Positions 3,606-45,787 of a stretch of 64,000 nucleotides of DNA are shown here, piece by piece. The DNA is from a virus. The translations under genes were made by a program, and so were the position numbers. Each line of letters opens with the position of its first letter. Within the stretch, counting starts at the first letter, position 1. Where the stretch lies: positions 64,001 to 128,000 of the IMG/VR virus record IMGVR_UViG_3300031963_000020. One strand, written 5' to 3'. Below the pieces are notes generated by a model. The model did no database searches and was not told the origin of the DNA. It was given only the letters and a program-made list of their open reading frames with translations.

Positions 3606-3925
3606 TTCTTTTAACTGACCTTTTAGACGAAGTTGTAACTGAACTTGACGAAAAGTATAAAACCAAAGGTAATCTTGGTAAATGGCTTCGTCAAAAATGG
3701 GTAGATATTTCTCGCAAAGATAAAAAAGGAAAACATCCACCATGCGGTGCTTCGGCTGGTAAGAAAGAGCGAAAGGGTGGTAGTGCAAAATATCCAAAGT
3801 GTCGTCCCGCTCGTTCCGCAGCAGCGATGAGTAAAGGTGAAAAACGTTCGGCTGTAGTTAGAAAGAGAAAAGCAGGAAATCCAGGTGGAAAACCAACAAT
3901 GGTTTCTACCTTTAAAAAGAAATAA
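3602..3925 (+). CDS. Basic hypothetical protein, probable internal head protein
   Basis: MILLTDLLDE N-terminus; LGKWLRQKWVDI...PCG...YPKCRP pattern. Confidence 0.7.
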   Translation: MILLTDLLDEVVTELDEKYKTKGNLGKWLRQKWVDISRKDKKGKHPPCGASAGKKERKGGSAKYPKCRPARSAAAMSKGEKRSAVVRKRKAGNPGGKPTMVSTFKKK

Positions 3926-3947
3926 ACTCTTGACTTTGAGAGAGAAA

Positions 3948-4517
3948 ATGATTAGATTAACTGATATTCTTTGCGAAGGTTGTTGGGAAGGATATAAGCA
4001 AGTTGGTATGAAGGAAAAGAACGGTAAGATGGTTCCCAACTGCGTTCCAGTAGAAGAACTTTATCATCGTCCAGAAAGTGATGTTACATCGGATAGTGAT
4101 TTCAAGCCAGACCAAGATAATGAACGTGACCAATTCGGCTCGGAAACACACGTTTCAGGTCACGAAGATGAAATAAACGATGGTGAATACTGCACAGAAT
4201 GTCTTATTGAAGTTCTTGAAGGATTACACGAAAATCAACTCGGTGAAGCAGAATATCGTGGTCGTAAGGTTGCTCTCGGTAAGATTATGAGAGGTGATGT
4301 TAAGAAGTTTAAGGTGTTCGTCAAAGACCCAAAGAGTGGAAATATTAAGAAGGTTAATTTTGGTCATGGTGGAACTTCGGCAAAACGTCGAGGTGAAAAG
4401 ACAATGAAGATTAAAAAAAATATCCCTTCTCGTCGTAAGTCGTTCCGTGCAAGACACAATTGTGATAATCCAGGTCCAAGAACAAAAGCTCGTTACTGGG
4501 CATGTCGTACCTGGTAA
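3948..4517 (+). CDS. Hypothetical head-cluster protein (start moved to ATG 3948)
   Basis: MIRLTDILCE start; CWEGYKQVGMKEKNGKMVPNCVP and RKSFRARHNC...ARYWAC modules resemble T4-like phage hypotheticals. Confidence 0.7.
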   Translation: MIRLTDILCEGCWEGYKQVGMKEKNGKMVPNCVPVEELYHRPESDVTSDSDFKPDQDNERDQFGSETHVSGHEDEINDGEYCTECLIEVLEGLHENQLGEAEYRGRKVALGKIMRGDVKKFKVFVKDPKSGNIKKVNFGHGGTSAKRRGEKTMKIKKNIPSRRKSFRARHNCDNPGPRTKARYWACRTW

Positions 4518-5196: not shown

Positions 5197-7089
5197 ATGG
5201 CTGATAACAGCATATTTGGCAGACTAAAGAAATTATTTTCTACTAATACGGTAGTTCGTAATGTTGGTGGAAAAAGACTTAAAGTAGCCGACACAGATAA
5301 CATTCAATCGTTTATCAATAGACGCGGTATTGATAGATACCACCGCGTCTATTCTTCTATGACGGGTGGATATGGTTCTGCCCATGGACGATATGAAGCA
5401 GCGGCTGCGTTCCAAGGTTCCCGCTTGCAATTGTTCCGTGATTATGATATGATGGATAATGACCCCATTATTTCATCGGTGATGGACATCTATGCTGACG
5501 AATCAACCACCAAAGATGAATTTGGTAATCTCCTTACCATTCATTCGAAGAATACACAAATACAAGAAATCTTACATAACTTATTCTATGATGTATTGAA
5601 TGTGGAATTCAATATGTGGCCTTGGATTCGTAATATGGTCAAGTATGGTGATTTCTTTTTATTCCTAGACATAGACCCAGAATTTGGAATTGTAAATGTA
5701 TTACCCCTTTCTGTCTATGAAACTATTCGTATCGAAGGTCAAGACCCAGGTAATCCATTCTCAGTCAAGTTCAAGATTGAAAACGATTTCTTATCGTTAG
5801 GTAAGACTGAATTCGATAATTACGAAATAGCTCACTTCCGTCTCCTTTCGGACACCAACTTCCTTCCATATGGTAAGGCAATGGTTGAAGGTGGTCGTCG
5901 TGTGTGGAAACAACTTCAATTGATGGAAGATGCGATGTTAATTCATCGTATTATGAGAGCGGCAGATAAGCGTAAGATTTTAATTGATATCGGTAATATC
6001 CCACCAGCAGAAATCGATACGTTTATGAATCGTATTATGGATAGAATGAAGAAAACACCATTGGTAGATCCTGCAACTGGTGATTATAATCTTCGTTATA
6101 ATATGCAAAATATCACAGAAGATTTTTATCTTCCTGTTCGCGGTAAAGATTCTGGAACAGACATCCAAAACCTTCCAGGTCTACAATTTAATGCTATCGA
6201 AGATATTGAATACCTCCGTAATAAGTTAATGGCAGCATTCAAGGTACCAAAAGCATTCTTAGGATACGAAGAAGATTTAAGTGGTAAGGCAACATTGGCG
6301 GCACAAGATGTACGTTTCGCACGTACTATAGAACGTATCCAACGTATTATGGTGTCAGAACTCACCAAGATTGCAATTATCCACTTATACGTTCAAGGAT
6401 TTACTGATGAAGATTTGATAGACTTTGAATTATCGTTGACCAACCCATCAATTGTCTATGAACAAGAAAAGTTAAACTTATGGAAGGAAAAGATTGGGGT
6501 TGCAGAATCTATTATGAACAGTAAGATGTTATCACAAGAATGGATATACCATAATATTCTTGAATTATCTGATGATGAAATCGTGGAAGAACGTACTAAG
6601 ATTGCAGAAGATGTAAAACGTATGGCACAGTTAGAACAATCAGCACAACCACAACAACCAGGTGCTACAGGTGAACAACCAGCAACAGATGAAGCACCAC
6701 CAACCGAAGAAGAGGAACAACAAGTTTCTGATGTTGATAGTATTTTGGCCTCATTAGAAGATGGTGGTGAGGAAAGTGAGTTGGAAGGATACGGTGATGA
6801 AGAAGCTGAATTAGAAGAAGCTAAGATGGGCCGTCCAAAAACAGGAATGAAATTTGGTCAAGACAGTCACCCACGTGGTCGTGACCCACTCGGACACAAA
6901 GAAAATATGGGTTCGTTGACGGTCAGTAAACAACGAAATGATAAAAGAAAGTCTCCGTTGGCACTTACTAAAGAAGTTCAGGCATTAGTTGCAAACTTAA
7001 AAAAGCCAAGTAAGAAAGTCTTAATGGAAAACCAAGAACCAACTGGTTCTTTATTAGACGAAAGTAATATTTTGGACCTAGAAAACTAA
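5197..7089 (+). CDS. Portal protein (T4 gp20-like)
   Basis: LMEDAMLIHRIMRA, IDIGNIP, EDFYLPVRG, IEDIEYLRNKL and AFKVPK motifs; acidic C-terminal tail. Confidence 0.93.
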   Translation: MADNSIFGRLKKLFSTNTVVRNVGGKRLKVADTDNIQSFINRRGIDRYHRVYSSMTGGYGSAHGRYEAAAAFQGSRLQLFRDYDMMDNDPIISSVMDIYADESTTKDEFGNLLTIHSKNTQIQEILHNLFYDVLNVEFNMWPWIRNMVKYGDFFLFLDIDPEFGIVNVLPLSVYETIRIEGQDPGNPFSVKFKIENDFLSLGKTEFDNYEIAHFRLLSDTNFLPYGKAMVEGGRRVWKQLQLMEDAMLIHRIMRAADKRKILIDIGNIPPAEIDTFMNRIMDRMKKTPLVDPATGDYNLRYNMQNITEDFYLPVRGKDSGTDIQNLPGLQFNAIEDIEYLRNKLMAAFKVPKAFLGYEEDLSGKATLAAQDVRFARTIERIQRIMVSELTKIAIIHLYVQGFTDEDLIDFELSLTNPSIVYEQEKLNLWKEKIGVAESIMNSKMLSQEWIYHNILELSDDEIVEERTKIAEDVKRMAQLEQSAQPQQPGATGEQPATDEAPPTEEEEQQVSDVDSILASLEDGGEESELEGYGDEEAELEEAKMGRPKTGMKFGQDSHPRGRDPLGHKENMGSLTVSKQRNDKRKSPLALTKEVQALVANLKKPSKKVLMENQEPTGSLLDESNILDLEN

Positions 7090-8533: not shown

Positions 8534-9121
8534 ATGCAAACATTACTCGTAGAATATAATGTCATTTCTTATGACACTACTTTATTAAAAGAAGCAGCAG
8601 ACATCAGTAAACCTTTGATGTTAAAAGATGTTTTACTTCAACGTGCAGAAATGAAGAACCAGAATGGTCGTGTATATCCAAAGGAAATCTTATCACGTGA
8701 AGCAATGGTATACAAGAATAACTTCGTATCACAACGCCGTGCACTTGGTGAACTCGACCATCCAGAAAGTCCTGTCGTCAACTTAAAAAACGTCTGTTGC
8801 AACGTCACCGAACTCTGGTTCGAAGGTGATGATGTCAAGGGCAATATCGAAATTTTATCTACCCCATCAGGCAATATCGTTCGTGAACTCATCAAGAACA
8901 ATATCCGATTGGGTGTTTCATCCCGTGGTATGGGTTCTGTCAAACCAATCGGTGAGAATACTGTAGAAGTTGGTGATGACTTCTCACTTATCTGCTTTGA
9001 TATTGTCAGTAATCCAAGTACTCACGGGGCATTTATCAACGAAAACAAGGGTGGTCAAATTATCACCCCCTATAGTCGTATTGATACATTGATATATGAC
9101 TTTTTAGGTGAACTAAAGTAA
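8534..9121 (+). CDS. Prohead core protease (T4 gp21-like; start moved to ATG 8534)
   Basis: NQNGRVYP, ALGELDHP, GVSSRGMGS, FDIVSNPST motifs. Confidence 0.93.
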   Translation: MQTLLVEYNVISYDTTLLKEAADISKPLMLKDVLLQRAEMKNQNGRVYPKEILSREAMVYKNNFVSQRRALGELDHPESPVVNLKNVCCNVTELWFEGDDVKGNIEILSTPSGNIVRELIKNNIRLGVSSRGMGSVKPIGENTVEVGDDFSLICFDIVSNPSTHGAFINENKGGQIITPYSRIDTLIYDFLGELK

Positions 9122-20830: not shown

Positions 20831-23800
20831 ATGAGCTTACCAGATATTACTGTTGTTATACAAAAACCAGATGTAGTTGTCAGAAACTTAGGTGGTTCAG
20901 GATCATTTTTAAATGTCGCTGATTCCGCAGTAAGTTCTTCTTATGCATTGACTGCAAGTTATGCATTAAATGGTGGTGGTGGAGGTGGTGGTGGAGATGG
21001 TGCAACAGGTCCAACTGGTGCAACTGGTCCTCGTGGTGCAACGGGTGTTGCAGGCTCTCCAGGTGGTGCAACGGGACCAACAGGTCCATCAGGTAGTCAA
21101 GGTGCAACAGGTATTCAAGGTTTAACAGGTGCACAAGGTGCAACAGGTGTACAAGGTACCACAGGTCCTACTGGTGCGCAAGGACCAACTGGTAGCACTG
21201 GTCCACAAGGTATTCAAGGTGTCACAGGTCCAACTGGTGCAATTGGTCCACAAGGTGTAACAGGTAGTACAGGACCACAAGGTATTCAAGGTGTTACTGG
21301 ATCTACTGGTCCTATCGGTCCACAAGGTGTAACAGGTAGTACAGGACCACAAGGAATCACGGGGCCAATAGGTGCAACTGGTCCGGAAGGTCCAACAGGT
21401 GCATCTGGTCCAACTGGTAGTACAGGTCCTACGGGTATTCAAGGTATTCAAGGACCAACTGGTAGTACAGGTCCGCAAGGTGATACAGGTCCACAAGGTT
21501 CAATTGGTCCAATAGGCCCAACAGGTCCAACTGGTAGCACAGGTCCACAAGGACCACAAGGTGATATTGGTATTACTGGTGCAACAGGTATCCAAGGACC
21601 AACAGGGTCAACAGGACCGCAAGGTATCCAAGGTGTCACAGGTCCAACAGGTCCAATTGGTCCTGGATTAAATATTAGTGGTAGTTTACCAGATACGGGT
21701 AGCCTTCCTCCATCGGCGCCAACTGGTTCTGCATTTATTATTGGTCAAGATTTATGGGTATATAATGGAACTTCTTGGGTAGACGTTGGTGATATCTACG
21801 GACCATCGGGTTCTACAGGCCCAACAGGTCCACAAGGTACCACAGGTCCAACAGGCCCAATAGGTCCACAAGGTGTAACAGGCAGTACAGGCCCAACAGG
21901 ACCAGAAGGCCCAACAGGTGCATCTGGTCCATCTGGTAGTGTTGGTCCACAAGGTCCAGTCGGTCCAATAGGTCCAACAGGTCCAACTGGTAGTACAGGT
22001 CCACAAGGACCAGAAGGTAACCAAGGAGAAACAGGTCCAACAGGTGTACAAGGTGCAACAGGTATTCAAGGGCCAACTGGTAGTACAGGTCCACAAGGTA
22101 TAACAGGTCCAACAGGACCAATTGGTGTAACTGGACCAACAGGTGTTGCAGGACCAACGGGTTCAACAGGTCCAGCAGGTACTGCTGGACCAACAGGTAG
22201 CACAGGTCCAATTGGTCCAGAAGGACCAACGGGTAGTACAGGACCAACAGGTCCACAAGGTGTAACAGGTAGTACAGGTCCAGTAGGTTTACAAGGTGTT
22301 ACTGGTTCTACAGGCCCAACAGGTCCACAAGGTGTAACAGGCTCAGAAGGTGCAACTGGTCCAATTGGTGTTACTGGTGCAACTGGTGTTACAGGTTCCA
22401 CAGGTCCAACAGGTCCAGTAGGTCCAACAGGTAGCACAGGTCCAACAGGTCCACAAGGAACCACGGGTCCAACTGGTGCAACTGGTTTACCTGGTGACAT
22501 CTATTCTACAACCAGTAGCACATCACTTTCTATCGGAACTGGTTCAAAAACATTAACTATTGCAACGGGACTTGCATATAGTATTGGTCAATCTGTTATT
22601 ATCGCATTCGATAATAGTAACAAAATGGAAGGTAGTGTTACCTCATACGATAGTGGAACAGGTCAATTAGTAGCTAATATTACAACGGCTACTGGTTCGG
22701 GTACATACACAGCATGGCAAGTAAGTTTGGCAGGTGCACCAGGACCAGCAGGTGTTACAGGTCCAACTGGTCCTGCAGGTCCAATTATTGCAGGACTCGT
22801 CAGTAGTTCTGCACAATACCCAGGATGGGTCACTAGTTCCGCACAAATTGATTATAACGCAATCACTAATAAGTTGAGTGGTGTAATATCCTCCTCAACT
22901 CAGTTTAATGCATTAACTGGTACATCTGCCTCATATTCAGCTACCGCATCGTTGTCTACAGCAGTAAGTGGTGGAACAGAAGATTATATACCACTTTGGT
23001 CATCAGCAAATACACTTACACGTAGTAGATTATACCAAACTGGTTCTAGTATTATATTTGGTGGAACGACATTCTATGATGAAACCGCACCAGATATCTT
23101 TGGCTTGTACGGTGGTATAACAGACTCATTTAATTTAATCACTGCGCACGCAATAATTGACAACTACTTACAAATAAATGTTCGTAACTTAAGTACAGGT
23201 TCTTCTGCATCATCAGATATAGTTGCGGTTAAGAGACTAGGAACAGAAACATCTGGCTTCATTGATATGGGTATCAATGATGACAATTATGTTGGTACGG
23301 AAATTTATGATGTTGCGGGTGATGCATACCTTTATACAGTAGGTGGAAATTTAGTAGTAGGTTCTGCAAGTGATACAGGAAGTGTAGTATTATTTACTGG
23401 CGGTGATACTCCATCGGATAAAAAAGTAGAATTACGAGCAAATAATTTACACGACATCACTGGTAGTCTTACAGCAACACAAGGATTTACTGGTTCGTTA
23501 TCTGGTATAGCAACGACCGCATCATTTGCAACAGCAGTTAGCGGTGGAACTACAAACTATATTCCATTCTTTAATACAGCAAACACGTTATTTAGAAGTA
23601 GATTATATCAAACTGGTTCTAGTATTATATTTGGTGGAACTACATTCTTTGACGAAACCGCACCAGATATCTTTGGTTTATATGGTGGTCTAACAAATTC
23701 ATATAATTTAATCACTGCACACGCAACAATTAACAATTACTTACAAATCAATGTTCGTAACTTAAGTACAGGTTCTTCTGTATCGTCTGACATAGTTGCA

Positions 23801-26659
23801 GTAACACCATTAGGTACAGAAGATTTTGGTTACATTGATATGGGTATCAATAGTGATAACTACGTTGGTAATAGAATTTATGATTTACCAGGAGACGGTT
23901 ATCTGTATACCACAGGTAGTAATTTAGTAGTTGGTACATCAACCGCAAATAGTAACGTTACTATTTTCGCAGGTGGTGACACTTACGCCAATCGTAAGTT
24001 AACATTAAAAGCAAGTAATCAACACGAAATAACAGGTAGTGTAAATATCAGTGGTAGTATATTACCATCAAATGATTCTGTATTTGACCTAGGTTCACCA
24101 TCATTAAAGTTTAGAAGTTTATATCTTTCTGGTTCTACTTTATATCTTGGCACGCTCGCAATCTCTGATAATAATGGTACATTATCTATAACACCATCGG
24201 GGTCATCGACTCTTTCACCTGTATCTGGTGCATTTACTGGGTCGTTCCTTGGTAATTTGATCGGAAATGCTAATACAGCAACAACAGCATCGTTTGCAAC
24301 CACAGCATCATTTGCACTAAATGCACAAAACGTACCACTCGGTACAGTATCAAGTTCAGCACAATATCCTGGTTGGGTCACAAGTTCTGCGCAAATTGAT
24401 TATAATAGTATACAAAATAAGTTAAGTGGTGTAATATCTTCATCAACACAATTTAACTCATTAAGTGGTACATCAGCATCATTTGCAACAACCGCAAGTT
24501 ATGTAGCAGGTGCAGCAAGTGACTGGGCATCATTAGCAAATAAACCAGCAGATATCGTAAGTAGTTCTACCCAAGTCAAGGCGTTCTTACCTGGTGGCAC
24601 TGTAAGTGCATCGGCACAATATCCTGGTTGGGTAACCGCATCATCACAAATTGATTATAATAATATTACCAACAAATTATCTGGTGTAGTTTCCGCATCA
24701 GCACAAGTAGTACCATTACTTCCTGGTGGAACCGTTTCAAGTTCAGCACAATACCCAGGATGGGTCACTAGTTCCGCACAAATTGTGGTGCAAAATACCA
24801 CTGGTATTGGTGCGTTAGCAACAACTGGTTCAAATACATTTGTTGGTAATCAAGTAATTAGTGGTTCATTAACTACCACCGCAGATACAATGACCTTCAA
24901 TGGGTCGATGGCCGTATCGGGAACACTTTCATTAACTGGTAGTTTAAATGTATTAAACGGTGGATTTACTGGTTCATTAACGGGTAGTGCAACTACAGCA
25001 ACATCGGCGTCATTTGCAACTACCGCAAGCGCAGCAACCAGTATAACATTTATACCAGCAACGTCATCATTTGCATTAACAGCAAGTTATGTTCCTGGTG
25101 CAGCAAGTGATTGGAATTCTGTAGCAAATAAACCAGCAGATTTGGTCAGTAGTTCTACCCAAGTCAAGGCGTTCTTACCTGGTGGAACTGTTTCAAGTTC
25201 CGTACAATACCCAGGATGGGTAACCGCATCAAGTCAAATTGACTATAACTCAATTCAAAATAAGTTAAGTGATGTTGTATCAAGTAGTGCACAAGTTCAA
25301 CCACTACTTCCTAACGGAACAGTATCAAGTTCCGCACAATACCCAGGATGGGTAACCGCATCAAGTCAAATAGAATTAAATAGTATTACAGGAACCACAT
25401 TTGCAACAGCAAACTTTACTTTCCCACAAAACTTAACTGTCGCTGGAACACTTACCGCTCAAGAAATACAAACCGAATACGTAACATCATCTATTATTTA
25501 CGAATCTGGTTCAACTAAGTTCGGTGATACAGCAGACGATACACATCAATTTACAGGTTCATTAAGCGTTCTTGGAACAATTAGTGGTGGATTGGTATTA
25601 CCAGCAGGAACTGTAACAGCATCATCACAAATTGATTATAACTTAATTCAAAATAAATTAAGTGGTGTGGTAAGTAGTTCATCACAAATTCAACCACTAC
25701 TTCCAGCAGGAACAGTATCAAGTTCTGGTCAAGTAGATGTTCGTAACACAACTGGTATTTCAACACTTGCAACTACTGGTTCAAACACATTTACCGCAAC
25801 ACAAACAATAATTGGAAACGTATTCTTAAGTTCATCGTTCCCATTAGTTTATAATAACGATAACACTAACAATATGTTGTTTGGGTTCTTTGATGGTAGC
25901 TCCATTTACGGTGCATATTATCAAACATTTGGAAATAACTACACGGCACTAAATCAACGTGGTGGTGCAGAGTTTGTATATGATATTAGAAATAATAGTG
26001 GTGCAAACTTCCATATCGCATCATTTAATGGTGCAACTTGGACTGAAAAGTTTAGAGTAGATGATAACGGAGCACACGTAACTGGTTCATTGGTATCAAC
26101 TGGTGGTATTACTGGTTCATTACTTGGAACAGCAAGTTTCGCAACTACAGCTTCATTTGCATTAGCAACCGCAGGAACCGTAGAAAATGCAAATACAGCA
26201 TCATATGTAGCATATACAAATATTGATGGTAAACCAACACTAGTATCTGCATCATCACAAATAGATTACAATTCTATTACGAATAAGTTGAGTGGTGTAT
26301 ACAGTAGTTCGGCATTCGCATCACCAAACCAAGGTACTGTAAGATTAACATTAAATGGTGTTCAGTTAACTGACGTTGATTTGGGTGTACAAACATCTGA
26401 TACCCCAACATTTGCTGGAGTAAGTAGTTCAAATCATATCACTCCAACCGCAGATAATACTTATAACTTGGGTGCACCTGATAAGAGATGGGCAAACATA
26501 TACACGGGTGACTTAATATTATCTAATGAAGGTTCTTCAGGTAATACCGTAGATGGAACAACAGGTAACTGGACTATTCAAGAAGGTGAAGAACATCTAT
26601 ACATTATCAATAACAAGTCTGGTAAGAAGTTTAGATTTATGTTATCGGAGATTAACTAA
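20831..26659 (+). CDS. Long tail fibre protein with collagen-like region, duplicated beta domain and SSSAQ repeats
   Basis: Long G-X-Y (GPT/GST) tracts; tandem ~200-aa domain; [11 protein letters not shown] repeats; C-terminal WANIYTGDL...WTIQEGEE module. Confidence 0.85.
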
Positions 26660-36975: not shown

Positions 36976-38619
36976 ATGACGTTTAAATTTTTTCCGTTCG
37001 GTGTACCAACTACTAGTTCGTTTGCAATAGGAGTCGGAGTAACAGCTACCGCATCTATTGCAATTAATAGTGGTTCTGCGTTCTCTACGGCGTCATACGC
37101 ACTGGGTGGGTCCACGGGTGCCACAGGTCCAAGTGGTCCGCAAGGAGCAACAGGTCCAACAGGTCCAACGGGTCCAACAGGCATTTCTGGATCAACTGGT
37201 GTTTTGGGTACTTCTGGTTCAACAGGACCACAAACGTCAGGGTCAACAGGTCCGACTGGACCAAGTGGTATTACTGGAGCAACAGGTCCAACAGGACCAA
37301 CTGGTATTACGGGTTCTACGGGTGTAATAGGTATTACAGGACCATCTGGTATTCGTGGTGCAACAGGTGCAACTGGAGCAACAGGTCCAACAGGCCCAAC
37401 AGGTAGTGTTGGTATAACTGCTGGTATCATAGGTGTATCAGGTGTTACAGGCCCAACTGGTTCATCTGGTCCAACTGGTGTACAAGGAAGCACGGGTCCA
37501 ACTGGTGTGGGGCCAACTGGAGCAACAGGTGCAACGGGTCCATCTGGTTCAGCAGGACCAACAGGACCAGTGGGACCAACAGGAGCAACTGGTGCAATCG
37601 GACCATCTGGATCTTCTGGTCCAAATACATTCGGAATAGTTGGTATAACTGGAGCAACTGGTCCTACTGGTGTTATCGGACCAACGGGACCACAAGGAAA
37701 CGCTGGTCGAGCTGTATTTTTCATAACAGGATCATGTAATCAAACACATTCCGATATCACCGTTCCTCACAGTGACGTTGCAGCAAGTCATACTGATATC
37801 GCAGCAGCACACACAGATACTACCATTAATGCATCACATAGTGACATTGTTACCACAACACCAGCATCACATACAGATAATACTACACCATTCGTAAATA
37901 CGACTATTAACGCATCACATAGTGACACAACAATTAATGCATCACATAGTGATATTGCGCATAGTAATATTACAATTAACGCCGCACATACTGATAATAC
38001 CACACCATTTAATAATATCGCATTTACTAATATTGCAAAATCACATACGGATATTTCACACAGCAATATATCACATACGAATATCGGAGCAGCACATACA
38101 GATAATACTACACCATTTAATAATATCGCGTTTAGTAATATTGCATTCACAAATACCACTATACCATTTAGTAACATAGGATTTAGTAATTCGTATACTC
38201 CACATTCAAACATTGCTAAAGGTGCAGTTCATAAAGACGATTACGGTCCACCAGCACATACAAATAGTACAACACCACATAGTAATATTGCATTCTCAAA
38301 CACAGGATTCTCTAACTCGTATACTCCACATACAAACGTGGGTCATACGGATATTGCGTTCTCTAATACAGGATTTAGTAATAGTTATACTCCACATACT
38401 AATATTGGTTCAGCTCACACCAACACTACAATCAACGCATCACACACAGATAATTACACGGCACATCAAAACGTAGCGCATGGAGATATACCGTTCGTGA
38501 ATAGTTATACACCGGCACAATGTTCGCAATGTCCTGGTGGAGATCCGTCTGAATGTGATTCGTTCTGTGAATGTTATCCAAACTGTGGTTGCTTCGGTAA
38601 TACGTGCATCGGTATATAA
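36976..38619 (+). CDS. Collagen-like protein 2 fused to (H/F)-x-(N/D) array and 8-Cys C-terminal domain
   Basis: MTFKFFPFG; ~200 aa G-X-Y; 38 (H/F)x(N/D) motifs; CSQC...[13 protein letters not shown]...C tail. Confidence 0.85.
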
Positions 38620-38645
38620 TAAATGTTTATAATAGGGAATAAATA

Positions 38646-39422
38646 ATGCCAGGTCCAACACATACAAATATAGGCCACTCCGATATAGCGTTTGAGAATG
38701 TCTACGCTGCGCATACTGATTTTACACAAAATCCGGCACACACTGACAATACCACACCATTTAATAATATTGCAGCAGCTCATACCAATATCGCTCATAG
38801 TAATCAGGCATTTCTTAATACTTCATTTAGTAATATAGCAAAATCACACACCAATGTATCACATACAAATATTGGGCATACAGACGGTACGGCAGCACAT
38901 ACAGACAACTATTCACCAGCATCGCATTTAGATAATACTAGTGCACACTCAAATATCGCAGCAGCTCATACAAATATTGCACATAGTAATATAGCAACAT
39001 CACACACAGATATATCTCACTCAAATATATCTCATACTAACATCGGTGCATCACACACTGACAATACCACACCATTTAACAATATTGCGTTTAGTAATAT
39101 TGGGTTCGTAAACACCACTATTCCACATACTAATATTGGTCACACTAATATAGGTGCAGCGCATTCAGATAATACAACACCAGCAGATCACAGCGATATC
39201 GCATTTAGTAATATTACGATTAACGCAAGTCACACGGATATTACAATCAACGCAAGTCACACGGATATTGCAGCATCACATACCGATACTACCATTAACG
39301 CATCACACACGAATATAGTAAGTACCACTCCAGCTTCACATACCGACAGTACAACACCATTTACAAATAGTACTACACCACACTCAAATGTTGCGGCCGC
39401 TCACAGTAACGCATTCCTATAA
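38646..39422 (+). CDS. (H/F)-x-(N/D) repeat protein, mirror partner of 36976..38619
   Basis: 38 motifs; spacing is the reverse of the upstream array at 34/37 intervals. Confidence 0.85.
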   Translation: MPGPTHTNIGHSDIAFENVYAAHTDFTQNPAHTDNTTPFNNIAAAHTNIAHSNQAFLNTSFSNIAKSHTNVSHTNIGHTDGTAAHTDNYSPASHLDNTSAHSNIAAAHTNIAHSNIATSHTDISHSNISHTNIGASHTDNTTPFNNIAFSNIGFVNTTIPHTNIGHTNIGAAHSDNTTPADHSDIAFSNITINASHTDITINASHTDIAASHTDTTINASHTNIVSTTPASHTDSTTPFTNSTTPHSNVAAAHSNAFL

Positions 39423-40364: not shown

Positions 40365-41558
40365 ATGGCTAAAGCACCTGGTAGTATTTGGGTAGATGGT
40401 GAAACCTTTAGATTTATTGACGCAACTGGAAACGAGTACTATTACACTGGTACTGCGGGGTCTAGTCCTGCGGGAGCTAAGGCTGGTTCAATTTGGGTAG
40501 ACGGAAATGATTTTCATTATATTTCTGCTACTGGTGTTGACCGTACAATTGCATACACCGATTTGGGTGTAGCAGCGGGATCAAAACCAGGTTCAGTATG
40601 GGTGCAAACCACATTCTGGCAATGGATATCATCGGCAGGAAACGCTCGTCGTGGTCACACCGACGTAACAGCAGCACACACCGACAATACCACCCCAGCA
40701 TCTCACACAGATATTGCATTCGTTAATACTACAATTAACGCGGCACACACAGATACTACAATCAACGCAAGCCATACAGATATAGCAAAAGCACACACGG
40801 ATAACACAACACCAAATAGTCACACGGACAACACTACTCCGTTCAATAATATTGCGTTCGTTAATACTACAATCAATGCCGCTCACACGGATAATACAAC
40901 GAACGCAAGCCATACAGATATAGCAAAAGCACACACGGATAACACAACACCAAATAGTCATACTAACAGCTATACTCCACATAGTAATGTCGCACACACC
41001 AATATTGGTGCAGCGCACACGGACAACACTACTCCGTTTAATAATATCGCATTCACTAACACCTATATTGGTAACAGTCACACCAACAGTTATACTCCAC
41101 ACAGTAATGTCGCACACACCAATATTGGTGCAGCGCACACGGACAACACTACTCCGTTTAATAATATAGCATTTACCAATTCATATACAGGTAATAATCA
41201 CACTAACAATTACACACCACACACCAATATCGGTCACAGTAATATCGGTCATACTAATATCGGATTTAGTAACATAGCATTTAGTAATATTGGATTTACC
41301 AATACAACTATCAATGCATCACACACAAATATCAGTCATAGTAATATTGGTGTATCGCATACAAATATCGGTCATAGTAATGTTGGATTTAGTAATTCGT
41401 ATACTGGACACACAAACATTGCACATAGTAATATAGGCGTATCGCATACAAATATTGGACATAGTAATGTTGGATTTAGTAATTCGTATACAGGATTTGT
41501 AAATTCTTACACACCACAAAATCACACAAATTCGTATCAGGGTGGTCCTTCAGCCTAA
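40365..41558 (+). CDS. Protein with three GS(I/V)WV repeats and a 44-motif (H/F)-x-(N/D) array
   Basis: KAPGSIWVDG, KAGSIWVDG, KPGSVWVQ; array from 40656; SD GGAG. Confidence 0.85.
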   Translation: MAKAPGSIWVDGETFRFIDATGNEYYYTGTAGSSPAGAKAGSIWVDGNDFHYISATGVDRTIAYTDLGVAAGSKPGSVWVQTTFWQWISSAGNARRGHTDVTAAHTDNTTPASHTDIAFVNTTINAAHTDTTINASHTDIAKAHTDNTTPNSHTDNTTPFNNIAFVNTTINAAHTDNTTNASHTDIAKAHTDNTTPNSHTNSYTPHSNVAHTNIGAAHTDNTTPFNNIAFTNTYIGNSHTNSYTPHSNVAHTNIGAAHTDNTTPFNNIAFTNSYTGNNHTNNYTPHTNIGHSNIGHTNIGFSNIAFSNIGFTNTTINASHTNISHSNIGVSHTNIGHSNVGFSNSYTGHTNIAHSNIGVSHTNIGHSNVGFSNSYTGFVNSYTPQNHTNSYQGGPSA

Positions 41559-41578
41559 TGCATGAAAAGGAATAATAT

Positions 41579-42484
41579 ATGAATCATAGTAATTCGACAA
41601 CACCAGCATCACATACGAACATCGGTGCATCACATACTAATATCGGGTTTAGTAATGTGGGGTTTAGTAATAGTTATACTCCATTTTCAAATGTTGGGTT
41701 CGGTAATGTCAATGCATCACATACTGATATTGGATTTAGTAATGTGGGATTTGCAAATTCTTACACACCATTTAGTAATGTAGGGTTTTCCAATAGTTAC
41801 ACACCAAATTCACACACTAATATTGCACACAGCAATATTGGTCATAGTAATATTGGATTTAATAATATTGCGTTTAGTAATATCGCATTTGGTAATATTG
41901 CAAGAACACATACCGATAACACTACAAATGCAAGTCATACCAACATTGGTCATACAAATATTGGTGCTGCACACACGAATAACACCACACCATTTAATAA
42001 TATAGCGTTTAGTAATATTGCGAAGGCACACACAGATAACACTACAAATGCAAGTCATACCAATATCGCGCATACAAATATTGGTGCTGCACATACGGAT
42101 AACACCACACCATTTAATAATATAGCGTTTAGTAATATTGCGAAGGCACATACGGACAATACTACAATTGCCTCACACACGGACAATTACACTCCGCATA
42201 CAAACACTACAATTAATGCGGCACATACCGACAATACAACACCAGCATCACATACGGATATCGCACATACTAATATTGCTGCAGCACATACGGACAATAC
42301 TACTAACGCAGCCCATACGGACAATTACACCCCGCATACAAACACTACAATTAATGCCGCACACACGGATACCACAATCAACGCAAGTCATACCGACATT
42401 GCGCACACTAATACAACAATTAATGCTGCACACACGGATAACACCACACCACATAGCGACCAACCAGTATTTGTTGGTCCATAA
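41579..42484 (+). CDS. (H/F)-x-(N/D) repeat protein, exact mirror partner of 40365..41558
   Basis: 44 motifs; 43/43 spacings are the reverse of the upstream array; SD AAGGA. Confidence 0.85.
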   Translation: MNHSNSTTPASHTNIGASHTNIGFSNVGFSNSYTPFSNVGFGNVNASHTDIGFSNVGFANSYTPFSNVGFSNSYTPNSHTNIAHSNIGHSNIGFNNIAFSNIAFGNIARTHTDNTTNASHTNIGHTNIGAAHTNNTTPFNNIAFSNIAKAHTDNTTNASHTNIAHTNIGAAHTDNTTPFNNIAFSNIAKAHTDNTTIASHTDNYTPHTNTTINAAHTDNTTPASHTDIAHTNIAAAHTDNTTNAAHTDNYTPHTNTTINAAHTDTTINASHTDIAHTNTTINAAHTDNTTPHSDQPVFVGP

Positions 42485-42491
42485 TTAGGGC

Positions 42492-42520
42492 TTGACAAGT
42501 GGTGTGCGGTGTTGTATATT
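42492..42520 (+). promoter_or_regulatory. Sigma70-type promoter for the radical SAM operon
   Basis: TTGACA-17 bp-TATATT, 29 nt before the ATG; SD GAGG. Confidence 0.75.
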
Positions 42521-42549
42521 ATAAAATGATTTATTAATCACGAGGTTAT

Positions 42550-43869
42550 ATGACTATTGAATTAGAACCAGTTGGTGTAGTATGTAATTTAAGTTGCCCG
42601 TATTGTTACGAACATCCCATGCGAGATGCGGGTAATTTCCGACATAAAACATATTCCGTTGAAAAAATGTTAGAAGGTCTTGCCAAAGAAGGTGGTAATT
42701 TTACCCTCTTTGGTGGTGAACCATTATTAACTGATATTGACGATTTAGAAACTATTTTTAAGTGGGGGTTTGACCGATATGGATTTAATGGTATTCAAAC
42801 AAATGGTGTTTTAATTACTGACCGCCACATAGAAATGTTTAAGAAGTACAGAGTTCACGTCGGAATATCACTTGATGGTCCTGACGAAATGAACGACACG
42901 CGTTGGGCAGGGTCATTAGAAAAGACCAGAGAGGCTACCCGCAAGTCATTTGAAGCTATTAAAAAGTGTCTTGACAACAAGCTCTCACTTGGTTTAATTA
43001 TTACTATCCATAAGAAGAACGGATTACCAAAATATCGTGAACGTTTCAAGGCATGGATTAAAGAACTTCAGTCGTGGGGTGTTGATGGAGCAAGACTTCA
43101 TCCACTAGAGATTGACCATAGTTCTGTTGGTGAAACATTAGCTCTTACACCAGAACAAAATATTGAGTTCCTATTAGATATGTGGGACTTTGAAATCAGT
43201 GAACTAAATGTTCCTGGTAAGAAATCATTTCAGTTTGATATCTTCCGTGACGTAGAATATATGTTGCGTGCAGACGATGCAAACGCAACCTGTACATTTA
43301 TGACTTGTGACCCATATACCACGCATGCGGTGCAAGGTATTGACTCGCAAGGTAATAAAGCAAACTGCGGTCGTGGTAACAAAGAAGGTATTAACTGGAT
43401 TAAAGCCGATGTTGACGGATTTGAACGTCAGATGGCACTATATAATACACCACAAGAACATGGTGGATGTCAGGGGTGCCGATTCTTTATTATGTGTAAG
43501 TCACACTGCCCAGGTACAGGTGCAGATATGGACTGGAGAAATAGAACGGATACCTGTATGAATTGGAAGGTAGCGTTTAGTATCTATGAACGAATGATGG
43601 TTGAACGTGGTGAGATGCCATTATCTCTAGACCCAAAATTAAAGAGATATGAAGATATTTTGATGTATGGTTATAGTAGAGGTGCAGAACTTAGATTAGA
43701 ACACATTAAAAAGTATCTTGACCCAAATATTGGATTTGATATTGAAAGATACATCCAATCATATTTGATGAACCAAGCTATGGGTGGACACAAGCCACAC
43801 GCAGACCATACAGATGAAACAGGAAGATACGCATTAGAGTTTAAAGAGAAGTACGGATATTTACCTTAA
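42550..43869 (+). CDS. Radical SAM enzyme with SPASM-type domain (putative peptide/protein maturase)
   Basis: CNLSCPYC (CxxxCxxC), FGGEPLL, QTNG, ISLDG; C-terminal CTFMTC, NCGR, CQGCRFFIMCKSHC...C auxiliary-cluster cysteines. Confidence 0.92.
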   Translation: MTIELEPVGVVCNLSCPYCYEHPMRDAGNFRHKTYSVEKMLEGLAKEGGNFTLFGGEPLLTDIDDLETIFKWGFDRYGFNGIQTNGVLITDRHIEMFKKYRVHVGISLDGPDEMNDTRWAGSLEKTREATRKSFEAIKKCLDNKLSLGLIITIHKKNGLPKYRERFKAWIKELQSWGVDGARLHPLEIDHSSVGETLALTPEQNIEFLLDMWDFEISELNVPGKKSFQFDIFRDVEYMLRADDANATCTFMTCDPYTTHAVQGIDSQGNKANCGRGNKEGINWIKADVDGFERQMALYNTPQEHGGCQGCRFFIMCKSHCPGTGADMDWRNRTDTCMNWKVAFSIYERMMVERGEMPLSLDPKLKRYEDILMYGYSRGAELRLEHIKKYLDPNIGFDIERYIQSYLMNQAMGGHKPHADHTDETGRYALEFKEKYGYLP

Positions 43870-43887
43870 TATAAAGAGGATACGTAG

Positions 43888-44286
43888 ATGATACCAGGAT
43901 TACACGCAGACCACGTTGACACATCGGGTGCATATGGTCAAAAATTTGAAGTCGTAAAAGACTTGTTAGAAAAAGGAATGTTGAAAGAAATTCCAGAAGA
44001 ATTCCGTGATAAAGGAAATACTTCCGAAGAAGTTCCGGTTATTACTAATTCACAAACAGTTGTTGGTAATCAGCAATCGGGATGGGATATGTCTCGTGAC
44101 CATGCCGACCACGTTGACGAAACTGGTCGTTATGCACAATCGTATATGGAACGATTTGGTTCGGATTCCTTAAATAATAACGAAATTTCACAAGGAACTA
44201 CAGAACAACAGCAAGATACTGGTAATTCTTGGAAGTCTTTCTTGAAGAAGATTATTGCAGAAGAAAAGAGTAAGTTGAAGGTTTAA
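43888..44286 (+). CDS. HADHxD-repeat accessory protein
   Basis: HADHVDTSGAYG and HADHVDETGRYA, matching the radical SAM C-terminal HADHTDETGRYA. Confidence 0.75.
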   Translation: MIPGLHADHVDTSGAYGQKFEVVKDLLEKGMLKEIPEEFRDKGNTSEEVPVITNSQTVVGNQQSGWDMSRDHADHVDETGRYAQSYMERFGSDSLNNNEISQGTTEQQQDTGNSWKSFLKKIIAEEKSKLKV

Positions 44287-44305
44287 TTTAAACAACGAAG
44301 GGGTT

Positions 44306-45787
44306 ATGCAAAGAATAAAGCATGTCTTGCCTGATTGGACTCGGGTGCAGTGGACTTCTATAGAAAATAGAAACAAATACGAACCTATCATTGCGTCTAT
44401 CAATAACGCATGGAAACAGATTGAACGTATGTCGGTTGTTCACGATATTCGTCCATCTTCACTAGATATATTATCACCAGAAGAACTCATAAATTTAACT
44501 GCGGAATACGAAAAACATGGAGTACTCGTAGTTCCTATTGGTAAAGAAGGAAAAGCAGGAACTTACTCGTCTACAAGTACACCATATAATGGTGGTGATT
44601 ACAATATTCGTGTTGTATTCACAAAGTCTGAAGCTATAGCAGATGAATGGTTTAATATCTGGCAAGCAGAACCCCGCATTCGTGACCGTGAGGCTGGTCG
44701 TTTACTTGGGTATCCTACCTGCTGCACCAATCATTTTATGAAGTATTGGGTAGACCAGGAATTTGTTGATACTACGTGGACGATGGCAGCGGAAAATATG
44801 CAGTTAAATGATGACGATGAAACGCATCGTACTATTCATATTAAGGCAGATACTCCACCTGAAGCAAACATAATGTGGCGTTGGCAAGGTGTACGATTGG
44901 TATCACATCTTCCGTGTTCGTTTGATTGCAAGGCAACAGAAGAACTTGGTATGAAGATGGCAGAACTTGGTCGTACACTTGGGTTTGAAAAAGAAGTAAA
45001 TTGGATATATGAATTACTTTCGTGGCCTGTTGAATGGTCAGCACTGCATGGTATCGCAGAAATCCGTACACCAATCAACAAGATTTCATCCAGAACTGAT
45101 ATGACCCCGTGGAAGTATGTGGTACAGAAGCATGCACACGAATATCCTATTGATGGTATGTCTGGTATAACGTATCCGTATAATCAAAAGAAAATTAAAG
45201 TCAAACCCGTCACAAAAACTATCTCGTTCGCTAAATCTCTTGAAGATACTTCCGTATGGGAAGAAAACGGATTTAGTAATAAGGAAGCTATGGATCACTT
45301 CCACCAAGTTATCATTGACGCAATCGGGGATATGAAATATATTCCTGGTGGTAATGTCCTCGACCTCGGTTGTGGAAATGGTGTCTTGTTAGGTCGTGTA
45401 GTTGGAGACAGATTTGATCTCATCCCACACGGTGTTGAAGCAGACCGTCAACGTTGTATGTCCGCAGCAACTACCATCCATTGGGGTGTCTTTACAATGG
45501 GTAGCATCTTTGACCTTAATACGTGGAAGGAAGATACATATAGTTTGGTACTTTTGATGCCAGGCAGACTTCTTGAAACCACACGTGTAGTATCAGAACA
45601 AGTGCGTAAGCAACTCTATGACAAGACAGACCTTGTTCTTATCAACCTAACTTGTGATTGGACACAACAATATGGCTCGATTGAGAATATTATGAAGGTC
45701 ACAGGTCTTGACCAAGAATGGGAACCAGCAGGTAAGTTAATCCATCGTCAAGATGATATGGCACAACTTTTCAAGCGTAAGGTGTAA
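44306..45787 (+). CDS. Cys-motif domain (DUF483-like) fused to class I SAM-dependent methyltransferase
   Basis: RLLGYPTCC and SHLPCSFDC motifs; VLDLGCGNG motif I followed by GVE. Confidence 0.7.
   Translation: MQRIKHVLPDWTRVQWTSIENRNKYEPIIASINNAWKQIERMSVVHDIRPSSLDILSPEELINLTAEYEKHGVLVVPIGKEGKAGTYSSTSTPYNGGDYNIRVVFTKSEAIADEWFNIWQAEPRIRDREAGRLLGYPTCCTNHFMKYWVDQEFVDTTWTMAAENMQLNDDDETHRTIHIKADTPPEANIMWRWQGVRLVSHLPCSFDCKATEELGMKMAELGRTLGFEKEVNWIYELLSWPVEWSALHGIAEIRTPINKISSRTDMTPWKYVVQKHAHEYPIDGMSGITYPYNQKKIKVKPVTKTISFAKSLEDTSVWEENGFSNKEAMDHFHQVIIDAIGDMKYIPGGNVLDLGCGNGVLLGRVVGDRFDLIPHGVEADRQRCMSAATTIHWGVFTMGSIFDLNTWKEDTYSLVLLMPGRLLETTRVVSEQVRKQLYDKTDLVLINLTCDWTQQYGSIENIMKVTGLDQEWEPAGKLIHRQDDMAQLFKRKV

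Follow-up and report, generated by a model that had tools for sequence, protein, structure and literature searches.

Two adjacent viral genes, gA and gB, carry tandem duplications of equal length at mirrored positions, within proteins whose repeats follow a single spacing code read in opposite directions, and this arrangement persists through many length changes in relatives. The genes lie in the window, the 64,000-nucleotide stretch of DNA analysed here (positions 64,001 to 128,000 of IMG/VR record IMGVR_UViG_3300031963_000020). The structure of their product we infer from sequence: gA and gB probably specify a fibre of two antiparallel chains in register, which grows longer through matched duplications. 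The features of the region are as follows, where rungs are the facing pairs of repeat triplets in the proposed ladder.

36976..39422, + strand: second, independent mirror pair, g1 + g2 (mirrored triplet spacing)
36976-38619, + strand: g1, with collagen stalk, 38 triplets and Cys-rich end
38646-39422, + strand: g2, with 38 triplets
40365..41558, + strand: gA, putative outgoing arm gene, 397 aa (ORF, translation, motif tiling)
40711..40986, + strand: gA 138-nt tandem duplication, 46 aa x 2 (TRF 40711-40960, 91% matches; repeat family D10)
40959..41198, + strand: gA 120-nt tandem duplication (TRF period 120; rung 14 to rung 26)
41321..41495, + strand: gA 87-nt tandem duplication, 29 aa x 2 (TRF, 88% matches)
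41579..42484, + strand: gB, putative returning arm gene, 301 aa (ORF, translation, motif tiling)
41626..41787, + strand: gB 87-nt tandem duplication (TRF, 80% matches; mirror partner of gA 41321-41495)
41909..42148, + strand: gB 120-nt tandem duplication (in-frame copy alignment, mirrored arm coordinates; rung 26 back to rung 14)
42120..42395, + strand: gB 138-nt tandem duplication (TRF 42133-42413; repeat family D11; mirror partner of gA 40711-40986)
42550..43869, + strand: radical SAM/SPASM enzyme, rSAM (Pfam PF04055; CX3CX2C and CX2CX5CX3C motifs)
43888..44286, + strand: 132-aa protein with two HADHVD-x-x-G-x-Y motifs, resembling the rSAM tail; conserved in the relative L010
44306..45787, + strand: DUF483 domain fused to a class I SAM methyltransferase (Pfam; phmmer over loci)

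The gA protein opens with three GS[IV]WV-type beta repeats, a domain whose family comprises 338 clusters, followed by 44 [H/F]-x-[N/D] triplets at residues 98-389. Downstream, gB has its own AAAGGA ribosome-binding site and ATG start, and its C-terminus, HSDQPVFVGP, resembles that of single-chain homologs, the one in L010 terminating in HSDQPVLVGA. Further fibre proteins are encoded close to g1/g2 and gA/gB. Comparison of 40365-45787 with phage records by blastn gave no match, and a word-based homolog search with gA returned only seven weak matches because its sequence is low in complexity.

The repeat regions of gA and gB are each tiled by 44 such triplets, 5, 7 or 9 residues apart (17, 15 and 11 of the 43 spacings in gB, respectively). 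The gA spacing series is identical to the reversed gB series at 43/43 positions, compared with only 9/43 in direct order, and since the maximum in 200,000 shuffles was 29, chance is excluded as the source of the mirrored position. All 44 His and Phe residues of the gA repeats stand at the first triplet position, as do 164/167 in the repeat regions of g1, g2, gA and gB, which together hold 164 triplets. All triplets that begin with Phe end in Asn and none in Asp; H-x-D triplets gather at the arm ends far from the gA/gB junction and F-x-N triplets near it. The residues themselves are complementary across the mirror. Pooled rungs number 445 for HH, 292 for HF, 277 for FH and only 9 for FF, where about 84 FF are expected from the pooled counts, and four-residue xxTP linkers lie opposite I[AG]xA in 110/141 cases and opposite another xxTP in none; in one case, between the window and L026, an F-H rung has undergone a double switch to H-F. 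The second pair in the same phage, g1/g2, has a different code (mirrored 34/37, direct 14/37, with no F-F rung) that does not match that of gA/gB (19/37 and 18/37). Two-residue register slips are tolerated in g1/g2 and in the relative L007, which counts against a strict register.

The original prediction of a tandem 40-codon duplication in each gene was confirmed by copy identities and by TRF. The gA copies (40959-41078 and 41079-41198) differ at 14/120 nt (88.3% identity), with 37/40 aa identical and 9 synonymous versus 3 non-synonymous codon changes, and the gB copies (41909-42028 and 42029-42148) at 8/120 nt (93.3% identity), with 38/40 aa identical; changes between duplicate copies are mainly synonymous. 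At period 120, TRF delimits 40956-41223 in gA (2.2 copies) and 41873-42171 in gB (2.5 copies). The opposite positions in an antiparallel register claimed for the two blocks proved to be exact, as both duplications occupy the identical ladder interval, rung 14 to rung 26, and their unit lengths mirror each other (7-5-7-7-5-9 in gA, 9-5-7-7-5-7 in gB). The blocks had also been described as different; they are not unrelated, sharing the core HTNIGAA-HT[DN] together with ten further residues, and about 62% nucleotide identity in direct orientation (repeat family D6). The duplication attributed to both partner genes is not the only one: there are three matched pairs, whose periods run 138, 120, 87 nt along gA and 87, 120, 138 nt along gB. 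In arm coordinates the 138-, 120- and 87-nt repeats lie at 56-305, 301-568 and 666-840 in gA and, mirrored, at 48-328, 290-588 and 674-835 in gB. In-frame copy identity is 85.5% in gA versus 77.5% in gB for the 138-nt pair, and 88.5% (28/29 aa identical) versus 74.7% for the 87-nt pair, values that differ between arms, so that the paired duplications need not have been simultaneous. Inverted repeats between gA and gB at the DNA level are short chance pairs only, and the mirror therefore exists at the protein level only.

According to our model, gA and gB would form the two arms of one tail fibre, antiparallel and in register, with each gA triplet facing one gB triplet as a rung and with inter-rung linkers of equal length in both chains. 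Such a fibre could lengthen only by adding one ladder interval to both arms, and the cheapest route would be a duplication, within each gene, of that gene's half of an interval already present, since copies made in this way would be complementary from the start. The 120-nt duplications, spanning rung 14 to rung 26, would be such a pair, adding 40 residues per arm, and the 138-nt and 87-nt duplications would be two more. Direct physical pairing of the gA and gB chains is, in our judgement, highly likely, and it is probable that unmatched intermediates are removed by selection.

That fibre length evolves by paired expansions under selection for register had been proposed together with a comparison of repeat counts across relatives. 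In 14 distinct gA/gB-type pairs, whose rSAM neighbour is 73-99% identical, the two arms covary: spans range from 244 to 327 residues and are exactly equal in 10/14 (r = 0.97), whereas 1,000,000 permutations gave a mean of 0.9 and a maximum of 8 exact matches. The differences in arm length in L029, L031 and L032 are confined to the tip, where pairing of the chains is not required, and internal discordance among the 14 pairs takes the form of small slips in register between arms of equal span (L007, 31/33 rungs). The counter-example named in advance, a block gained in one gene with no match in the other, was looked for in the 14 pairs and found in none. At 12 loci TRF identified DNA tandem repeats whose period is common to both arms and whose coordinates are mirrored, with periods that differ between loci, and the 40-residue block is present in equal numbers per arm, 2/2 in the window, L026 and L029 and 1/1 in L004 and L025. 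The 14 pairs, the 12 loci and the equal block counts all support paired expansion under selection for register. Within genomes, block copy identities covary between arms (88/93, 88/92 and 82/84), and among the 120-nt copies of the window, L026, L029, L004 and L025 within-genome paralogs are closest, with some orthology signal left; this similarity could reflect gene conversion instead of recent duplication, which 120 nt cannot separate.

The relatives are mosaics with common proximal and different distal rungs, their fibre genes are about 79% identical at the nucleotide level where the rSAM gene is 94% identical, and the two arms are inherited as one contiguous cassette. Part of the between-locus covariation may therefore represent shared descent or cassette exchange instead of paired events that recurred independently. 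If adjacent arms were inherited and exchanged as out-and-back cassettes, their equal lengths might even reflect common origin and linkage in place of selection for register: both the mosaic rungs and the lower identity of the fibre genes fit frequent exchange, and nested exchange around the gA/gB junction would keep the arms matched automatically. A tandem duplication, however, is a local event within one gene, and since the copies in gA and gB are about 90% alike within a gene and about 62% alike between genes, two events at a distance of about 1 kb are needed for every matched pair; these may have been independent, or the pair may have been partly homogenised later. Against linkage there are also the 12 loci at which matched repeat pairs differ in period and the finding that an internal, block-scale unmatched state occurs in none of the 14 pairs; residue-level complementarity it leaves unexplained. 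We consider it unlikely that linkage accounts for the matched lengths.

The original prediction that the gA and gB products pair physically is supported by this complementarity across the mirror and by relatives that carry both arms in one self-mirrored hairpin gene, palindromic around a long central spacing. Self-mirroring reaches 102/102 in L009, 40/40 and 24/25 in L010, 28/37 in L054 and 30/34 at a locus, probably a prophage, in a Chengkuizengella genome, and the turn between the arms is only 11-13 residues. Among distant members of the N-terminal-domain family compared at a rigid offset, 9/69 lie above all shuffles, in a test that has little power with 3-6-residue spacings and a loose motif; perfect palindromes in this family include P0009, P0083 and P0121. 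An AF2 model of the single-chain homolog L010:9076-9939 (7-sequence alignment) resolves the N-terminal beta repeats only, the repeat part having a pLDDT of 30-46, and PDB sequence searches gave no match at E <= 1 and no solved relative.

Both arms might instead be aligned by a third component, for example a ruler or core protein or the collagen stalk, such that the mirror reflects a shared template, and g1 does bear a collagen stalk in a region where other fibre proteins are encoded. In the single-chain homologs, however, the arms fold around their short turn with nothing between them, the three-gene module of the Thermus phage Cumys contains just one triplet-repeat gene, and the rules by which F faces H and Pro-type faces Ala-type linkers tie the arms to each other. 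A shared template is accordingly very unlikely. Less probable again is that the arms fold independently, for example as beta-solenoids, and that the mirror is a compositional gradient from an Asp-rich base to a Phe/Asn-rich tip at equal virion distances. The clustering of H-x-D far from the junction and of F-x-N close to it would suit such a gradient, as would weak, sub-threshold Pfam pentapeptide matches, but a gradient needs neither the irregular 43-step identity of 5, 7 and 9 nor the exclusion of F-F and Pro-Pro, and the spacing lacks a fixed pentapeptide period. Assignment of the arms to the pentapeptide repeat proteins (Pfam Pentapeptide clan) was rejected in view of the mixture of 5, 7 and 9 in place of a strict five-residue period, the matches falling below gathering threshold (18.7 and 19.7 bits versus cut-offs of 38 and 26.4). 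Finally, although this DNA is repetitive and repeats may be collapsed during metagenome assembly, an explanation by assembly error or by chance resemblance within low-complexity repeats is scarcely credible and is refuted by the shuffles (0/200,000 reach the observed match), by arm-span matching in relatives and by mirrored TRF repeats; the same mirror rule recurs across dozens of contigs that were assembled independently and in the genomes of cultured Thermus phages, and assembly errors would give mismatched, not matched, arms.

Known systems share parts of this design. Like gA/gB, the receptor-binding needle of the T4 gp37 type, at the tip of the long tail fibre, belongs to a phage tail fibre, and its chain runs out to the tip and back with pairing of antiparallel strands. 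The collagen stalk of g1 implies a trimer, a likeness to trimeric gp37, and out-and-back antiparallel pairing is implied here by the mirror code and the self-mirrored homologs (AF2 gives pLDDT <50 on the repeats of a single-chain homolog). The antiparallel coiled-coil arms of SMC/Rad50 must likewise match in length, so that length changes occur in both segments, but these are alpha-helical heptad coiled coils within one chain, without an irregular spacing code, a two-gene split or a maturase. In gp37, His residues occur at intervals on the axis, and the trimeric needle coordinates seven iron atoms along its length (PMC6957217). Whereas gp37 is one chain with H-x-H sites, the gA/gB arms carry [H/F]-x-[N/D] triplets, are often split between two genes and comprise 250-380 residues, and their register consists of irregular 5/7/9 spacing with F/H and Pro/Ala complementarity, always with an rSAM gene adjacent. 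The repeat regions of g1, g2, gA and gB lack H-x-H altogether, and gA and gB match none of the PHROG and Pfam tail-fibre tip families and have no sequence relation to gp37.

The enzymes encoded next to the arms suggest modification of the triplets. The radical SAM enzyme has a SPASM auxiliary-cluster domain (Cys motifs, PF04055), the cysteines of CX3CX2C (C12/C16/C19) and CX2CX5CX3C (C307-C320) being the same in each of 9 homologs, and its C-terminal tail is HADHTD. In the listed loci (5 genome, viral and 44 metagenome) it adjoins triplet-repeat genes, and the rSAM and DUF483 genes keep their synteny with such genes even where rSAM identity falls to about 30%. The DUF483-methyltransferase accompanies rSAM in nearly every locus with that region covered; it has invariant C139, C140 and C208 and near-invariant H201 and C204. 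Its AF2 model (pLDDT 82) has a C-terminal domain that matches methyltransferases (Z 13), and among the fold-search matches listed all fall on the methyltransferase domain (residues 313-493); an Atlas search returned other DUF483 clusters only. From this gene neighbourhood it seems fairly likely that the two enzymes modify the triplets post-translationally. By analogy with gp37, His/Asp rungs may, alternatively or additionally, bind metal.

Aromatic-x-x triplets beside a SPASM radical SAM enzyme are also found in the triceptide systems (XncB, OscB, YxdB, HaaB, YhhB, HtkB), in which three-residue cross-links join Phe-C4 to Asn-C-beta, Trp to Asn/Asp, Tyr to Asp, and His-C2 to the C-beta of Ala, Arg or Lys; the same sources list no cross-link from His to Asn or Asp (PMC11002830; PMC11499958). 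A comparable aromatic-to-C-beta cyclophane is a possibility that we would put at somewhat less than even for the triplets. Triceptides are short leader-core peptides, whereas the candidate substrates here are proteins of a tail-fibre module with 258-547 residues and 38-44 motifs each, and the rSAM, unlike triceptide enzymes, has no N-terminal extension before CX3CX2C. It could not be placed in a named maturase family: NCBIfam scores of 38-72 bits are all below cut-offs of 310-450, with a sulfatase maturase highest at 72 bits, followed by YhhB 65 (cut-off 445), AmcB 58 (425), GrrM/OscB 48 (310) and XyeB 38 (450). If the triplets are modified, RiPP-type radical SAM chemistry would reach beyond small peptides, to about 160 sites in proteins of the virion.

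More tentatively, the fibre may be a protein analogue of base-paired nucleic acid, in which a single antiparallel register would be set by rung spacing (5, 7, 9), by Phe opposite His and by Pro-type opposite Ala-type linkers, with rungs stapled by the radical SAM enzyme or by metal. Matched duplications would then extend it in steps of about 30-46 residues, making appendage length a rapidly evolvable, heritable trait. If the chains pair as the code implies, proteins would have a new means of choosing partner and register, one that could be programmed for length and whose specificity would suffice to separate two fibre types in one virion. The matched duplications would be the evolutionary footprint of the register constraint, like compensatory changes in RNA helices, and they make pairing directly testable. 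In the literature on radical SAM enzymes, cyclophanes and triceptides, DUF483 and phage tail fibres we found no description of this two-chain register design.

The model would also account for a three-gene module found in freshwater myoviruses, in Thermus phages and at bacterial genome loci that probably represent prophages. The ‘rSAM module’ of the Thermus phages Cumys and phiMa comprises the same three genes, one for rSAM, one for a DUF483 protein and one for a protein of H-x-D repeats that has the same N-terminal triple repeat. The sole paper that we found on it describes the third gene as of unknown function and suggests a role in DNA modification, with no mention of triplets, mirror symmetry or a link to tail fibres (bioRxiv 10.1101/2024.08.14.607894). 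The Thermus phage rSAM is 45-51% identical to that of the window, and the DUF483 proteins match at E 1e-37 to 1e-42. These phages have both arms in a single gene, with triplets almost exclusively of the His type; in Cumys_13 the N-terminal repeats, triplets and C-terminal motif are all shared.

The source IMG/VR virus record is 148 kb long and the window covers part of it, with every window gene on the + strand. These genes include those for a terminase, portal, major head protein, tail sheath and large collagen-like fibre proteins, which identifies the window as a myovirus structural region. Two adjacent genes, gA and gB, terminate the fibre module and are followed by a radical SAM/SPASM (rSAM) gene, a 132-aa gene and a DUF483-methyltransferase gene:

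40365-41558, + strand: gA, the outgoing arm, 397 aa
40365-40655, + strand: gA N-terminal domain, three tandem ~35-residue repeats, GS[IV]WV-x-G...F-x-[FY]I...G
41579-42484, + strand: gB, the returning arm, 301 aa, starting 20 nt 3' of gA, with an AAAGGA ribosome-binding site and an ATG of its own
42550-43869, + strand: rSAM gene, downstream of gB

Each repeat of the N-terminal domain has three short strands in an AF2 model. The family of this domain comprises 338 clusters at 50% identity among 1.84 billion proteins, and in most members H-x-D-type triplets come next. Elsewhere in the window, 20831-26659 encodes a 1942-aa protein with very long collagen-like Gly-x-Thr repeats and strong tail-fibre PHROG matches; 3' of it are ORFs of 1502 and 1118 aa, the former with no family match.

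Beyond the N-terminal domain of gA, both arms are tiled without remainder by [H/F]-x-[N/D] triplets, 44 in each, that start 5, 7 or 9 residues apart. The His and Phe residues of the repeat regions occupy the first triplet position (44/44 in gA, 44/45 in gB), Phe triplets are always F-x-Asn, and these regions hold no H-x-H. The gA spacing series is identical to the reversed gB series at 43 of 43 positions, against 9/43 in direct order and a best mirrored match of 29 in 200,000 shuffles. We infer that the arms are structured in this antiparallel register, each gA triplet facing one of gB as a rung. A second pair upstream, g1/g2, is mirrored at 34/37 spacings with a series of its own that matches neither gA nor gB. 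This pair (37747-39410) contains a local exception in which g1 spacings of 9 then 11 stand opposite 11 then 9 in g2, offsetting one rung by 2 residues. The identical slip recurs in three related loci (L029, L003 and L004), and it therefore looks built-in rather than an error. A literature search brought up nothing that describes a mirror-coded fibre, and PDB sequence searches returned no solved structure related to the fibre genes.

The 40-codon tandem duplications that the original prediction placed in each gene are confirmed (gA 40959-41198, gB 41909-42148), and this observation was extended. Both were recovered independently by TRF and a repeat finder; the copies differ at 14/120 nt and 3/40 aa in gA and at 8/120 nt and 2/40 aa in gB, the changed codons being mostly synonymous. 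The two genes had been thought to duplicate different blocks, but these share a common core with ~62% nt identity in direct orientation. Their opposite placement proved exact, both duplicated blocks running from rung 14 to rung 26. The unit series is 7-5-7-7-5-9 twice in gA and 9-5-7-7-5-7 twice in gB, and in the mirrored register gA copy 1 lies opposite gB copy 2 and gA copy 2 opposite gB copy 1. The same two programs give duplication periods, in order, of 138, 120 and 87 nt in gA and 87, 120 and 138 nt in gB, at these positions:

Tandem duplications, in nt from the junction-distal end
gA: 56-305, 301-568, 666-840
gB: 48-328, 290-588, 674-835

Paired expansion that preserves the antiparallel register, as originally proposed, is supported by covariation among relatives, a comparison that the original prediction had put forward as its possible refutation. 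With the rSAM protein as query, viral and metagenome contigs yielded 66 loci, 14 of them with distinct, complete gA/gB-type pairs, whose arms span 244-327 residues and carry 33-47 motifs. Spans are exactly equal in 10 of the 14 pairs (r = 0.97), compared with a mean of 0.9 and a maximum of 8 exact matches in one million permutations. The span differences in L029, L031 and L032 consist of one or two additional units at the junction-adjacent tip end, and the arms of L005 differ by 1 residue, again at the tip end; in L007 the spans are equal, with a small internal slip that leaves 31/33 rungs coinciding. No internal block-scale gain by one arm was seen in the 14 pairs. When TRF was run on each arm separately, 12 loci had tandem repeats of equal period at mirrored coordinates in both arms, for example:

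Periods matched between arms (TRF)
L025: 138, 51 nt
L026: 138, 120, 51 nt
L027: 69, 138, 45, 66 nt
L030: 132, 57 nt
L037: 123, 54, 69 nt
L031: 48, 69, 57 nt

The 40-residue block itself is present in two copies per arm in the window, L026 and L029 and in one per arm in L004 and L025, while in both arms of L003 three 21-residue units substitute for it.

The facing residues are also complementary. Phe-Phe rungs number 0 in both window pairs (hypergeometric probabilities 0.0013 and 0.013), and pooled counts across related loci are 445 HH, 292 HF, 277 FH and 9 FF. The window and L026 differ by a swap of one rung from F-H to H-F, both sides being altered. Four-residue linkers are of two kinds, xxTP and I[AG]xA, which face one another in 110/141 cases, Pro-type never facing Pro-type; in each copy of the duplicated blocks all linker pairs conform. 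Where the arms are separate chains, the F/H code may be a means of ensuring hetero-pairing.

The rSAM protein has both a CX3CX2C motif and the complete set of SPASM cysteines, invariant among homologs. At every informative locus, down to ~30% identity, it and the DUF483 protein are encoded beside triplet-repeat genes. The one paper found that touches the three-gene module names it 'rSAM module', describes a protein in it as of unknown function, and offers DNA modification as a guess (bioRxiv 10.1101/2024.08.14.607894). Triceptide enzymes join an aromatic residue to the C-beta two positions on; among the known cross-links are Phe-Asn and those of His with Ala, Arg or Lys (PMC11499958, PMC11002830). 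By analogy, triceptide-type cross-linking of the triplets is tentatively our best chemical lead. Metal rungs, instead of or besides such cross-links, would fit the distribution of Asp, at least one being present in 15/16 H-H rungs versus 3/28 F-H rungs; these Asp-bearing H-H rungs, read here from sequence, recall the T4 gp37 needle with its irons coordinated by His (PMC6957217).

As to the enzymes themselves, the rSAM protein reaches no named family's cut-off, falling far short of each, and its scores against cyclophane-forming maturases do not exceed that against the sulfatase maturase. Within 43783-44136, its C-terminus reads HADHTDETGRYA, and HADHVDTSGAYG and HADHVDETGRYA lie in the 132-aa protein that follows; all three are back-to-back H-x-D triplets resembling the proposed substrate and are conserved in L010. 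Thermus phage rSAM proteins have tails rich in H-x-D. The DUF483 domain (gene 44306-45787) has an invariant LLG-x-P-x-CC and C208 and near-invariant H201 and C204, a pattern suggestive of a metal or Fe-S site. The window protein joins this domain to a class I methyltransferase; in Thermus phages and some others the domain stands alone.

Because copies are ~90% alike within each gene and the gA and gB blocks ~62%, each matched pair requires two local events ~1 kb apart. Duplication of one ladder interval in both genes would make the new rungs complementary at once, which would explain why the route recurs. Copy identities of the 40-residue block covary within genomes (gA/gB: window 88/93, L029 88/92, L026 82/84), which would fit paired timing; gene conversion between copies, over 120 nt, is the other candidate source of this covariation. 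Copies of the 87-nt and 138-nt pairs look older in gB than in gA and so make no case for simultaneous duplication. The arms evolve fast, and the divergence step from L026 is sharp: ~79% nt identity across them (40365-42484), against 94% for the rSAM gene and 93-94% for the rSAM, small ORF and DUF483-methyltransferase stretch (42550-45787). On this comparison the fibre arms are a hypervariable cassette. The relatives are mosaics, and since the arms are encoded out-then-back, matching survives any exchange nested around the junction. Such exchange explains some of the between-locus covariation but not the internal tandem duplications.

In other relatives a single gene encodes both arms, its spacing series palindromic around one long central spacing:

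L009, single-gene form: 102/102 motif positions mirrored
L010, single-gene forms: 40/40 and 24/25 mirrored
L054, single-gene form: 28/37 mirrored

Self-mirrored single genes also occur in Thermus phages Cumys and phiLo and at a Chengkuizengella genome locus that is probably a prophage. The single-chain L010 protein begins with the gA-type triple repeat and ends in HSDQPVLVGA (HSDQPVFVGP in gB), and gA plus gB are thus the split form of a hairpin. Alignment of both arms on a third component is less probable, since this equivalence favours arms paired directly back-to-back.

Single-chain hairpins (L009, L010, L039, L060) have 0-5 Phe, their triplets being almost entirely His-type; split forms (window, L003-L005, L025-L036) have long complementary Phe runs opposite His. 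The arm-A gene of L005, L031 and L032 ends in a Cys-rich knob, as does window g1 (38500-38619), and a ~430-nt gap precedes the second arm gene:

L005: inter-arm region, 8666-9058
L031: inter-arm region, 5513-5946
L032: inter-arm region, 3692-4125

The L005 gap holds an additional gene of ~130 aa without triplets, whose product is a candidate tip or receptor-binding component. In bacterial genomes and a single nanohaloarchaeal one, probably within prophages, full-length orthologs of rSAM are present (32-48% identity; L077, Paenibacillus aurantiacus; L079, Chengkuizengella axinellae; L078, L080, L081, L082). In L079 two self-mirrored triplet proteins lie immediately upstream of rSAM, and L077 has triplet spacings of 8 residues.
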